Shown: positions 26,341 through 29,772 of the stretch, piece after piece
Position numbering within the stretch: the first letter of the stretch is position 1
Layout of the letters: each line of letters starts with the position of its first letter
NCBI RefSeq assembly: GCF_004365815.1
Contig: NZ_SODD01000032.1
Location: forward strand, 1 to 30,100
Direction of reading: 5' to 3'
Length of the DNA stretch: 30,100 nucleotides
Source: Breznakia blatticola
Lineage (GTDB): Bacteria; Bacillota_I; Bacilli_A; Erysipelotrichales; Erysipelotrichaceae
The notes under the pieces: model-generated
What the model saw: only the letters and a program-made list of their open reading frames with translations
The model's database searches: none
What the model was told of the DNA's origin: nothing
Made by a program: the position numbers and the translations under genes

Positions 26341-28467
26341 TTATACATCCTTACCCGTCTTTTTTGCATTTCTCACTTGAAGCACAAGAATCATGCATCC
26401 TGCAAGTATTGCTAGTGCAAAATAAACACCTACAGATGTTGTATCACCTGTTTTTACAGTTGTTGTTGCACTTGGATTTGCTACACTTGGACGTAGTTCT
26501 GTATTTTTATCATTTCCTGGTTTTACTGGATCCACAGGTTTCACTGGATCTACTGGATCAATTGGATCAACTGGGTCCACTGGATCTACTGGGTCTACTG
26601 GATCAACTGGATCTACTGGATCAACCGGGTCTACTGGATCAACCGGGTCTACTGGGTCTACTGGGTCTACTGGATCTACTGGGTCTACTGGATCTACTGG
26701 GTCTACTGGATCAACTGGATCAACTGGATCAACTGGATCATCATTCTTTTCCCATACTGCATAGATAGTTACATCATCATCCACTTTTGTTTTATCTGTA
26801 AATGTATATCCTGAACCATCTGGTTCTGTATTCCATTCAACGAATGTATATCCATCACGCACTGGCTCTGAAGGTAATGAATCAATTGTTTCTTCACTAG
26901 GTGTAAGGCGTGGCTCATCATCTTCTAAAGAGCCACCATTTGGATCAAAAGTAACCGTCTTTAAATAGTCTCGATAGCTTATATCATTATTATTGTATGC
27001 ATGTGTAAATGGTGCTGTAAATGTAGTTGTTTTTATTTTATCTGCATGAAGTACTTCATGTTCTTTACGAAGTCTAGTTGAGAATGAAGCTTTATTGTTT
27101 GAGAATACAACATCAGCACCGATCTTAATCTTCTCTAGTTGTGATGCATGTGAAGGTTGTACTTGCTTTGGATCAATATATCGTATCAAGATTGCTCCAC
27201 CATCAACTGAAGCCACATTATTTGAAATTGTTGCTTTGTCGATTTTGATCGTAGCACTTGTTTTTGATTGGAAAATTGCTCCACCATTTTTCGATGTATT
27301 TCCACTAATAACTCCATCATGCATAATCATATCTACACCATTATCAATCGCACCACCAAATTCAGCAGCAGTATTATTTAATAATTCAACATTATAAATT
27401 GTAAGTGAAGAAGAATTGTCACTAATACTTATTCCTCCTCCACGAAGATCTGCTGTGTTCCTATCAATACGACCACCATAAATCGTCATTGCTGTACCAA
27501 GTATTCCATAGAGTCCACCACCACTATTCGTTGCAGTGTTATTTGAAATTGTTCCTCCATAAATAGTAACCGGTGAACCAACGCTATGAATTGCTCCACC
27601 ACATTCACCAGCATTGTTAGAAATTTCACCACCTGTTATTACTACACTTGATGATATTTCAGTAAATGCATCTACAGTACGTGTATGCGCATATATCGCA
27701 CCACCACTTGTGGTAGTTCTGTTGTGAGAAATCTTTCCTCCATTAATGACAACACTTGCACCAGTAGTTTGAATTGCCCCACCAGATTGCTTTGTTGTGT
27801 TGTTTGATATTTCACCGTTTTCCATAATAAATGTCGCACCATTGTAGTTTTGAACTCCACCACCATTTGCTGCTTGATTATTACGAATTACTCCACTTTG
27901 CAAAGTAAACATTCCTTCATTATATACTGTACCACCAGACATTTTATTGATAGTCACATCATGTAAACTACCTCCAGTATGTACATTGTCTTCAATGATC
28001 GCACCTTGTTGTACAAGTACTGCACTTGCTTCATTATAGATTGCTGAACCGCGATCTGGATGAAGTCCATTTTTAATTACCATATCTTTTACATACAATG
28101 TTCCATAATTATGAATTACACGAACTGCACCATTCCCATCTAGTGCAACTGTATTTGTTGAAGATGTAAGTGCAATCACTTTATCCGTAGGAATTGTAAT
28201 TGTGGAAGTCAGTACAATGTCCTGACTCAATTGAATCGTTGTTGGTTGAGTTGCACTTACAATTGCGGCTTCCAATTCTGCTTGTGTACTTACACTCTCA
28301 TTTGCACTCCAACTTGGTTCATTAATTGTTCCATTTTTCGTTGTACCTGCTTGCATTACATCAACTTCTGATGCATATGTATGTGCTACCATGCTTGTTA
28401 AAGCAATGATACACACAAGTAATAATTTACTTGCATTATGTATTCTCTTTACTTTTCTTGTCATCAT
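26341..28467 (-). CDS. Secreted, cell-surface beta-helix repeat protein (Pmp-like GGAI repeats, Listeria-Bacteroides repeat, DPV stalk, C-terminal anchor)
   Basis: 708 aa. The signal peptide ends ...AHTYA/SE. About 11 repeats of ~22-25 aa are centred on GGAI/GGGx and NN motifs. These are followed by TVTFDPNGG...[18 protein letters not shown]...IYAVW and then 25 XPV tripeptides. The C-terminus carries TVKTGD, a hydrophobic helix and a basic tail. Confidence 0.85.
26515..26739 (-). repeat. 9-bp in-frame tandem repeat, 25 units
   Basis: Units ACTGGATCT, ACTGGGTCT, ACTGGATCA and ACCGGGTCT on the plus strand. They encode 19 uninterrupted DPV units followed by [18 protein letters not shown]. Copies differ mainly at synonymous positions. 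Confidence 0.95.
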
Positions 28468-28488
28468 ATATTTCCATCCTTTTTCTTT

Positions 28489-29772
28489 TTAATGAATCAC
28501 TATTTCTAACTCATTTCCGGCATAATCACTAATATAAAAATAATCTATACTTTTCCCTGGAGAAACAATTCTCAAAATATGATTTTCTGCATCATATGTG
28601 TACGATGAACTTCTTTGCTCATCACGATAAAACCGTATGCTGTTACTATCGATAGTTGATGCATCATCATATAGGTAATACGTAAATGTATCACTCTCTT
28701 TTTTATAAGTTCCATTTGGACTATAAATATCAATATTTGATATTTCTATTTCCTTTTCGTCAATAACTTTTCCCTTTGATACTAACTGAACTTTATGTTT
28801 CCCATTTTCTGTAATGGCATCTTCTTTTTTGCCATCAATCCATATCTCATCGTACTGTCCATCTGTTGTTTCCACATGTAATGGTACAGCTTTATTTGTC
28901 CAAGCCTCGTTATATGTAATATTTTTTATTTTTGCATGAACTATTACTTCTTGCTTTACTGGCTCTTGTTTTACAGGTGTTGGTTGAGAAGATGGAATGA
29001 ATATAATTGCTCCAGCAATCACACCTGCCCCAATAGCTCCTCCAAACAACAGTTTTAACAAGACTGCAGTTTTCGCAACATGTTTTGGTTGCAATATGGA
29101 TTGTAATATTTCCATACTAGCTTGTTGGTTTAATACAAATCGTGTACTAAATTCCCGATACAACGTTTGTAAGATCATCGGTGATAAAGCAAACACGTAA
29201 CTGTTTGGTGATATCCCTTGGTTCTTTAAATCTACTTGTAGCTTCTTACGAATTCGATTCAATCTTGAATTCACTGTTCCTTTTGGAATCACTAAAAGTT
29301 CAGCAATTTCTTCAATTTGTAATCCTTCATAGTACCGCAACAATCCTACCTCTTTTAATGAATCACTCATCGTATCTAATGATTCGAAAATAACTTCTTT
29401 AATTCTTGTATTTTCGAATTCTTTGGCAGCTGATACGCCTTTATGATCTTTAAAATCTTCAATACTCTTATTTTCACCTAAGTCAATAATTTGCATCTTT
29501 CGTCGTCCTTGATTCATACATACTGAGTATGTTATTTTTCGCAACCATAAACTAAAAGCCTCCGGGTTTCTTAGTTCTTTGATTTTTCGAAAAACGAGAA
29601 TGAATACTTCCTGAACGATATCTTTTGCAATTTCCTCATCCCTGTAATACTGACACGCCACAAAATACACTTGATTGTAGTGTGCTTTGTAGATTGATGA
29701 AAATGCATCTACATCCCCGTGTTGTGCTTTTCGAATCACCGTCTCATCAACATAATTAAATTTATTTTTCAC
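28489..29772 (-). CDS. Sigma-70/ECF-like factor fused to a transmembrane helix and a beta-rich extracytoplasmic domain
   Basis: 427 aa with a GTG start and SD GGAAGGAAA. Residues ~1-184 hold region 2 (DIVQEVFILVFRK...WLRKITYSV) and region 4 (LQIEEIAELLVIPKGTVNSRLNRIRKKL). Residues ~235-259 form a TM helix (TAVLLKLLFGGAIGAGVIAGAIIFI). Residues ~260-427 hold a PVKQE linker and a beta-rich region. The stop lies 21 nt before the surface-protein start. Confidence 0.8.
   Translation of the reverse strand: MKNKFNYVDETVIRKAQHGDVDAFSSIYKAHYNQVYFVACQYYRDEEIAKDIVQEVFILVFRKIKELRNPEAFSLWLRKITYSVCMNQGRRKMQIIDLGENKSIEDFKDHKGVSAAKEFENTRIKEVIFESLDTMSDSLKEVGLLRYYEGLQIEEIAELLVIPKGTVNSRLNRIRKKLQVDLKNQGISPNSYVFALSPMILQTLYREFSTRFVLNQQASMEILQSILQPKHVAKTAVLLKLLFGGAIGAGVIAGAIIFIPSSQPTPVKQEPVKQEVIVHAKIKNITYNEAWTNKAVPLHVETTDGQYDEIWIDGKKEDAITENGKHKVQLVSKGKVIDEKEIEISNIDIYSPNGTYKKESDTFTYYLYDDASTIDSNSIRFYRDEQRSSSYTYDAENHILRIVSPGKSIDYFYISDYAGNELEIVIH

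Follow-up and report, generated by a model that had tools for sequence, protein, structure and literature searches.

The window analysed here is an entire contig of Breznakia blatticola (Erysipelotrichales), 30,100 bp long. On its minus strand, we found a gene that joins an extracytoplasmic function (ECF) sigma factor, one transmembrane helix and an external domain in a single polypeptide of 427 amino acids (aa). The original prediction had proposed this single-chain architecture from the window alone. It is real: the two sigma regions expected of the class, one membrane helix and an all-beta ectodomain are present, and they are conserved in homologs. The gene heads a two-gene unit with a gene for a surface protein, called the cargo here. 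We hold with moderate confidence that the fusion is an autoregulated, membrane-tethered pro-sigma factor, which is freed by regulated proteolysis and drives its own two-gene operon.

A sigma factor, a membrane helix and an ectodomain in one chain

The gene and the segments of its product are the following.

28489..29772, minus strand: coding sequence of the sigma/transmembrane/ectodomain fusion, 427 aa, GTG start, stop codon at 28489..28491 (open reading frame (ORF) list; the homolog alignment backs the start)
29497..29694, minus strand: sigma region 2, residues 27-92 (Pfam Sigma70_r2, E 1.7e-10)
29236..29379, minus strand: sigma region 4 helix-turn-helix, residues 132-179 (Sigma70_r4_2, 5e-10; Sigma70_r4, 2e-7)
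29071..29217, minus strand: cytoplasmic juxtamembrane linker, residues 186-234 (conserved 'GISPKNY..P...AY..L' in alignments)
28993..29070, minus strand: single Gly-rich transmembrane helix, residues 235-260 (Kyte-Doolittle maximum 2.37)
28936..28992, minus strand: external Pro/Glu/Lys-rich flexible linker, residues 261-279 (predicted local distance difference test (pLDDT) <50 in AlphaFold2 (AF2))
28717..28935, minus strand: immunoglobulin (Ig)-like domain 1, residues 280-352, with W291, N323-G324 and 'SNIDxxSP' (AF2, Foldseek)
28492..28716, minus strand: Ig-like domain 2, residues 353-427, with 'DDxSxI' and 'ISDYAGNELEI' (AF2, Foldseek)

The N-terminal 185 residues are a bona fide ECF (group 4) sigma core. 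The profile search suggested for regions 2 and 4 matched both above cutoff. Sigma70_r2 (PF04542) scored 41 bits against a cutoff of 24 over residues 27-92, and Sigma70_r4_2 (PF08281) scored 39.3 bits against 25.7 over residues 132-178. The Pfam family Sigma70_ECF spans residues 13-183. Likewise, the NCBIfam ECF model TIGR02937 reached 89.2 bits (cutoff 42.9). Sigma regions 1 and 3 had no Pfam match on the fusion protein, and only a 33-aa linker separates σ2 from σ4. Five amino acids involved in core binding or promoter recognition (D51, F57, W76, P163 and T166) are invariant across the family alignment. Another four, Q54, E55, S169 and R170, are nearly so. None of the NCBIfam equivalog cutoffs was reached by the fusion; the best model was PRK12518, with 103.8 bits against 208.

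The original prediction had placed one transmembrane helix at about residues 235-259, and the Kyte-Doolittle profile agrees, with a single hydrophobic segment at 235-260. The best 19-mer (241-259) has a value of 2.37, and every other window has 1.6 or less. Exactly one such segment occurs in each of 18 non-redundant family members. Per 19 residues, their helices contain on average 3.1 glycines and about six small or polar residues. Lysine or arginine is found within 15 residues of the N-terminal (inner) side of the helix in 17 of these 18 proteins. The external linker that follows is the least conserved region; across the family it measures 19-47 aa and is acidic or proline-rich.

The external part had been described as rich in beta strands. 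In the AF2 model, residues 280-427 are all-beta and form two beta-sandwich domains. The ectodomain modelled alone has a pLDDT of 94.8 and a predicted template modelling score (pTM) of 0.79, and its pLDDT is about 90 in the full-length model. The second domain has four residues that never vary in the family alignment: D416, A418, G419 and N420. Searches of Pfam, NCBIfam and the sequences of solved structures gave no match for the ectodomain. By structure, Foldseek related it to tandem Ig-like adhesion modules, with weak E-values near 1e-3: Sidekick, the cadherin-like region of SraP and the bacterial Ig domains of SiiE. This Ig-like fold points to no particular ligand.

A profile of the ectodomain matches up to 29 tandem repeats in giant secreted proteins of 1.2-3.4 thousand aa. 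These proteins match DUF7743 (PF24893) and the OmpL47-type domain (NF047446). Their repeats have the signature 'NIDxxxP...WTN...NG.Y...D.AGN' in common with the ectodomain. Given this profile homology and common signature, the ectodomain is a pair of stalk repeats of the kind found in surface proteins, attached by recruitment to a sigma factor. It is thus like the DUF7743/OmpL47-type repeats of giant Firmicute surface proteins in profile and in repeat signature. However, it falls below both models, and it is a two-domain unit on a sigma factor instead of part of an adhesin stalk.

The architecture is uninterrupted in all 22 full-length homologs (427-448 aa, 98% to 32% identity). An exhaustive profile search with the ectodomain only gave 484 cluster representatives (threshold E<=1e-3). 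Among the best 150 of them, about 100 are proteins of 385-485 aa with the ectodomain at the extreme C-terminus, and those inspected have an N-terminal ECF core and one transmembrane helix. Short matches of 163-226 aa look like gene fragments. An alignment-guided metagenome scan with a 6-sequence ectodomain alignment found three loci. The named members come only from Breznakia, one Coprobacillaceae metagenome-assembled genome (MAG) and Amedibacillus, all of them Erysipelotrichales. At least six paralogs are present in B. pachnodae. NCBI names these proteins only 'RNA polymerase sigma factor'.

This conservation bears on a possible artefact, in which a frameshift, a lost stop codon or a misassembly merged the genes of a sigma factor and a membrane anti-sigma factor. 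The idea arises only since conventional split pairs exist, one of them within the window, and we found no evidence for it. Since the architecture is kept in independent assemblies, from isolates and metagenomes, in about 100 cluster representatives and from 98% down to about 30% identity, we reject the artefact as having a negligible probability. The fusion is one gene, as the original prediction held.

Conservation differs between the segments. The mean pairwise identity over the family alignment is as follows.

σ2: 0.51
σ4: 0.49
Ig1: 0.45
Ig2: 0.39
σ2-σ4 linker: 0.29
Juxtamembrane segment: 0.28
Transmembrane helix: 0.25
External linker: 0.17

Selection acts on the sigma core as well as on the ectodomain. 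For the ectodomain it is purifying, with identities of 0.39-0.45, versus 0.17-0.29 in the linkers.

The fusion had also been described as holding the domain content of a sigma and anti-sigma pair. This part was not borne out. The juxtamembrane segment has 48 aa and no cysteine, and it matches no anti-sigma family or solved structure. In the full fusion, no anti-sigma family of Pfam (FecR_N, zf-HC2/ZAS, RskA, DUF4179 and others) matched at E<=1, nor did any match 15 linker sequences of the family at E<=10. A hidden anti-sigma domain was considered and rejected: a profile of residues 186-262 found nothing among PDB sequences or in Pfam. The segment could be a short cis-inhibitory element.

Foldseek searches with the full-length AF2 model gave ECF sigma factors as the best matches. 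The top TM-scores (0.58-0.67) belong to compact, anti-sigma-bound forms, that is, SigW/RsiW, CnrH/CnrY and RpoE/NepR. The TM-scores to holoenzyme-bound sigma forms are 0.34-0.41. These values hint that the modelled core is compatible with a closed, inactive state, a state that AF2 often predicts.

Cargo genes downstream of the fusion

Three features complete the two-gene unit in the window.

26341..28467, minus strand: cargo coding sequence, 708 aa, starting 21 nt after the fusion (ORF list, Pfam, NCBIfam)
26524..26739, minus strand: 9-nt tandem repeat, 24 copies in perfect frame, encoding a (DPV)n stalk (Tandem Repeats Finder)
26302..26327, minus strand: terminator-like hairpin closing the unit, 11-bp stem followed by a T-run

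The ORFs lie exactly as the original prediction had them, with the surface-protein gene 21 nt downstream of the fusion. The predicted terminator after the pair was also found, as the hairpin at 26327..26302. The cargo has a signal peptide, a parallel beta-helix region of Pmp repeats and a Flg_new/InlB B-repeat (residues 504-571). Its C-terminal part contains the (DPV)n stalk, a 'VKTGDT' motif, a transmembrane helix and a basic tail. The (DPV)n array is likely to vary in length by slippage. Five Chlam_PMP stretches were detected (PF02415, 1.5e-15), TIGR01376 matched at 1.5e-13, and the GGA(I/L/V)/FxxN repeats of Pmp proteins are present. However, the cargo is not a member of the Pmp family, because no C-terminal autotransporter beta-barrel was found in it. 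Its best homolog has 39% identity; otherwise, it resembles InlB-B-repeat/parallel beta-helix proteins from many phyla. Homology between the ectodomain and its own cargo was also considered, and hmmsearch of the ectodomain profile against 15 cargos gave nothing significant.

To describe the linkage, we surveyed 18 fusion genes in 15 independent loci. In 16 of the 18, a large ORF (396 to >2,465 aa) begins directly downstream, so the claim that the fusion heads a two-gene unit with a surface protein extends beyond the window. The gap is 1-33 nt, and 113-132 nt in two of the 16. Every such product starts with a signal peptide. All cargos that are complete carry the variant motif 'x(T/S/A/M)GD(T)TN' at the C-terminus, and behind it a hydrophobic helix with a basic tail. 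'NPS' often precedes this motif (window 26344..26463; loci L005, L006, L008, L010, L011 and L017-L020). Despite this tripartite C-terminus, no LPXTG-anchor model matched the cargos at E<=1, and the motif is non-canonical. It may mark a lineage-specific sortase or anchoring system.

Some cassettes depart from this arrangement. The fusion of L016 (2390..3685) is an orphan with no downstream ORF. One fusion paralog, seen in L011 (4218..5534) and L012 (6001..7317), directly follows an anchored protein of 964-966 aa, and no cargo comes after it. In L001, from the Coprobacillaceae MAG, the cargo is split into ORFs of 1039 aa (1950..5069) and 390 aa (5075..6247), with the anchor on the second. Possible causes of this split are a frameshift, decay into a pseudogene or an error in the assembly.

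The cargos fall into at least five unrelated classes: giants with no Pfam match, VWA-like proteins, proteins with repeated 'GKYYFQETKAPxGY' segments, Flg_new proteins, and the Pmp plus Flg_new protein of the window. Where two fusions are about 50% identical, their cargos are still unrelated. Among the cargos sampled, the Pmp/Flg_new type is unique to the window. The specific pairing of the fusion with Pmp-like genes, which had been expected, is therefore contradicted by comparative genomics, and a Pmp-like cargo is rejected as the conserved partner.

AraC-type regulators with GyrI-like/Cass2 domains adjoin three cassettes, in L006 (6586..7509, minus strand), L017 (4469..5392, minus strand) and L019 (11974..12686, minus strand). 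This could be a coincidence or an extra regulatory layer.

Upstream motifs and models of activation

We ran a Gibbs sampler on 17 regions upstream of fusion genes and compared the results with shuffled sequences. A 32-nt motif was recovered in 15-16 of the 17 regions, 100-180 nt before the start codon. Its information content is 17.7, versus at most 14.4 in the shuffles. The motif consists of an A-tract, a -35-like element (GTGAGA/GAAC/GAAG), a T-rich spacer, (C/G)GTC and then (t/a)ta. Another motif, 12 nt wide and at the Shine-Dalgarno position, was found in 14 of the 17 loci, 13-22 nt ahead of the start (information content 11.9, versus at most 9.65 in the shuffles). In the window, they correspond to two features.

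29835..29874, minus strand: promoter-like motif, with -35-like GTGGAAG at 29870..29864 and -10-like GTGTC at 29847..29843
29779..29790, minus strand: Shine-Dalgarno region GAAAGGAAGGAA, conserved among paralogs as GAAAGGxGGG

A position weight matrix (PWM) was built without the window site and applied to 60,122 positions on both strands (background mean -21.3, SD 8.2). In this leave-one-out scan, the window site at 29874..29835 (minus strand) ranks first with 21.7 bits, and the runner-up has 13.6. Outside the training set, in 13 kb of the Amedibacillus locus L021, the matrix has its top match 247 nt upstream of the fusion, at ATAAAATGAACC-N16-CGTCTAA, a site of the form TGAAC-N17-CGTC. An exact enumeration of dyads for promoters was not significant in this AT-rich DNA.

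ECF promoters have 'AAC' at -35 and 'CGT' at -10. Because it resembles this pattern, the shared upstream motif is a predicted ECF-type promoter. ECF sigma factors are usually autoregulated (PMC7826278), and the motif fits such autoregulation, although it does not prove which sigma factor reads the predicted promoter.

In the reading that we prefer, the sigma factor would be made as an inactive, membrane-tethered pro-form, with the core and the juxtamembrane segment in the cytoplasm, followed by the transmembrane helix, the linker and the external Ig-like domains. An external event on the ectodomain or the linker would trigger cleavage at site 1, after which a site-2 protease would cut inside the transmembrane helix and free the sigma core. 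Bound to RNA polymerase, the freed core would activate the GAAC/GAGAC...CGTC/GTGTC promoter that precedes its own gene. The outcome would be self-amplification, together with co-expression of the downstream, putatively wall-anchored surface protein.

Three elements of this scheme we infer: that the motif is the promoter of the fusion itself, that tethering inhibits the sigma factor and that it is set free by proteolysis. The analogy with IutY and RsiW-type systems suggests that a signal or intramembrane proteolysis would activate the fusion. The Gly-rich helix and the disordered external linker would fit the site-1/site-2 protease route, as circumstantial evidence. The architecture, the linkage with surface genes and the upstream motif fit a self-contained regulator-effector module. 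Thus, the sensor-regulator-effector module of the original prediction stands in part: the fusion-cargo unit and the shared ECF-type motif agree with it, but the Pmp specificity does not.

Several observations weigh against the pro-sigma reading. Searches of the 48-aa juxtamembrane region against Pfam and PDB sequences revealed no anti-sigma domain, so that cis-inhibition is conjectural. The AF2 confidence is low (pLDDT <50) at residues 205-276 of the full-length model. By gene annotation, no protease gene is linked to the fusion within the window. In addition, the ectodomains are alike in all paralogs while the cargos differ. Since both the ectodomains and the promoter motifs are similar and the cargos are not, the source of the signal specificity of each cassette is a puzzle that this reading leaves unexplained. 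The likeness of the paralog promoter motifs makes cross-talk, or control by another ECF sigma factor, possible. Finally, five paralog loci have a second, proximal ECF-like motif, AAAAA(A/G)TGAAC-N17-C(G/T)AC(T/A)A. It occurs in L005 (both modules), L008, L010 and L013, about 40-60 nt upstream of the start and downstream of the family motif, and it is not present in the window. Another paralog might use this proximal motif as a second promoter, which would give a cascade or cross-talk.

The similarity of the promoter motifs and the second motif in these five loci also favour an explanation in which the extension is only a device for localisation or turnover. The fusion would be processed constitutively, and other regulators (another ECF sigma factor, a paralog cascade or a neighbouring AraC/GyrI-like protein) would decide the expression of the cassette. 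The AraC/GyrI-like genes next to the modules of L006, L017 and L019 agree with it, and so does an ectodomain that is conserved instead of diversified across paralogs. However, the ectodomain is conserved alongside the sigma core, which argues for a specific function, and the tight spacing between sigma gene and cargo in 16 of 18 cases argues for a dedicated regulator. We regard this explanation as unlikely.

The pro-sigma reading must also be weighed against activity in the tethered state. The sigma factor would recruit RNA polymerase at the membrane and transcribe its own operon there, and this transcription would be coupled to the co-translational export of the cargo. The ectodomain would modulate activity through allostery or oligomerisation, as in ToxR or CadC, and without proteolysis. 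Such a model would suit the tandem Ig domains, which typically serve in dimerisation and adhesion, and the failure to find an anti-sigma domain. A linker of about 48 aa could let the core reach the polymerase, and the one target known to date lies directly downstream and encodes exported or membrane proteins. On the other hand, the literature search found no sigma factor reported to be active while inserted in the membrane, and the characterised fusion IutY requires cleavage (PMC8999054). The Gly-rich helix and the disordered external linker also resemble protease substrates. Activity in the tethered state seems to us rather improbable.

A wider extension of the pro-sigma reading is similarly doubtful. 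The Erysipelotrichales would hold a bank of interchangeable, positively autoregulated cassettes, each with a single-chain sigma factor and an adhesin, as independent switches of the surface repertoire. The Ig-like ectodomain would sense either contact with a surface or the passage of wall-anchored proteins through export and sortase processing. Sensing may proceed via Ig-Ig or juxtamembrane interactions, and the proximal promoter may wire the paralogs into a cascade.

Related systems, setting on the contig and meaning

A membrane-anchored, single-chain ECF sigma factor has been characterised experimentally essentially once, as IutY in Gram-negative iron signalling (PMC8999054). In IutY of Pseudomonas putida (ECF243), the sigma part is released through Prc and RseP (PMC8999054). 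The Breznakia fusion resembles it as one polypeptide with an N-terminal ECF sigma factor, a single transmembrane helix and an extracytoplasmic C-terminal domain. However, IutY has a FecR-type anti-sigma and periplasmic domain, signalling from a TonB-dependent receptor and a Gram-negative envelope. The Breznakia fusion has no FecR or anti-sigma match, two Ig-like domains, a Gram-positive host and a putatively wall-anchored surface protein as its predicted target.

For the ECF48, ECF52 and ECF53 fusions, activation by proteolysis is predicted (PMC8999054). These actinobacterial proteins (e.g. SCO4117 of Streptomyces coelicolor) are alike in having a long C-terminal extension with transmembrane helices and an external domain. 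They differ by a zinc-finger (ZAS) anti-sigma motif, one to two transmembrane helices, a Pro-rich region and a carbohydrate-binding domain. In contrast, the Breznakia linker presents no cysteine, no zinc-finger motif and no such Pfam match.

Another comparison comes from two-protein systems of Firmicutes. The SigI/RsgI systems of Clostridium thermocellum are multiple, paralogous and autoregulated modules of a sigma factor and a single-pass sensor, which drive genes for secreted or surface proteins. The presence of multiple paralogous modules per Firmicute genome is common to both. However, SigI and RsgI are two polypeptides, and SigI lies outside the ECF class; neither the SigI nor the RsgI_N family matched the fusion in Pfam/NCBIfam. 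The ectodomains of RsgI paralogs vary (carbohydrate-binding modules and others), whereas in the Breznakia family the ectodomains are alike and the cargos vary.

The SigW/RsiW and SigV/RsiV pairs have the same sigma class and a matching overall topology, as does a split pair in the window. By Foldseek on the AF2 model, SigW bound to RsiW is the structure nearest to the sigma core. In SigW/RsiW-type pairs, the anti-sigma factor is a second polypeptide that binds in trans; in the fusion, the parts are covalently joined and no anti-sigma domain is recognisable.

The split pair and the remaining features of the contig are listed below.

8679..9167, minus strand: conventional split ECF sigma factor, 162 aa (Pfam)
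7469..8677, minus strand: its single-pass partner, 402 aa, reported as overlapping the sigma ORF, with about 37 cytoplasmic residues, a transmembrane helix and an ectodomain
30006..30081, minus strand: group II intron 3' domains V/VI (Intron_gpII, 41.4 bits)
1..79, minus strand: start of group II intron 5' domains D1-D4 (intron piece)
29897..29947, minus strand: candidate ORF of 16 codons (MTENELSMSIVSILVF) between the intron end and the promoter motif, with the Shine-Dalgarno-like sequence GGAAAGG

The split pair (7469..9167, minus strand) is wedged between PolC and mraZ. Its description as a sigma factor with a membrane protein was right for the sigma factor, which Pfam confirmed, and for the single-pass partner, but the 402-aa partner has no Pfam family match. 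This membrane protein was also considered as a relative of the C-terminal part of the fusion, and no similarity was found.

Almost all genes of the window are on the minus strand, and they have mostly core functions. They include mraZ-rsmH-ftsL-pbp-mraY-murF-bacA, PolC, RNase III and RecG. Two ABC exporters with a MarR regulator are also present, as well as RmuC and a DbpA-type helicase. The fusion and its cargo are the final two minus-strand genes upstream of this helicase.

At both ends, the contig consists of group II intron pieces, and these have a common orientation. The assembly evidently broke within a multi-copy intron of this type, one copy of which ends about 230 nt upstream of the start of the sigma fusion. 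The upstream hairpin at 30040..30015, previously taken for an ordinary terminator, is the domain V/VI end of this intron. The 16-codon ORF (29897..29947, minus strand) overlaps a GAAC-N14-GTGTC-like sequence.

An ECF sigma factor with a transmembrane sensory extension is already known as a general idea. The present family differs in its phylum and type of envelope, and it lacks any recognisable module of the anti-sigma or zinc-finger kind. It also differs in an ectodomain built from adhesin-stalk repeats and in its expansion into many cassettes, each with a different, putatively wall-anchored protein. A literature search on membrane-tethered sigma factors and on ECF sigma factors paired with wall-anchored adhesins returned nothing on the Breznakia fusion family.

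As a compact Gram-positive counterpart of IutY, the fusion could show whether tethering alone silences a sigma factor, and by which route it is released. The paralogs are a natural set, each with one obvious target and a predicted promoter. This set is useful for studies of mechanism and has a potential use as orthogonal one-protein sensor-regulators. If the Ig-like ectodomain does sense surface contact or the export and sorting of wall-anchored proteins, this would represent a sensing logic not described for sigma factors. For the organisms themselves, the finding suggests how Erysipelotrichales from insect and animal guts control individual adhesins. If the cassettes are bistable or sense contact, they would explain surface variation in these symbionts.

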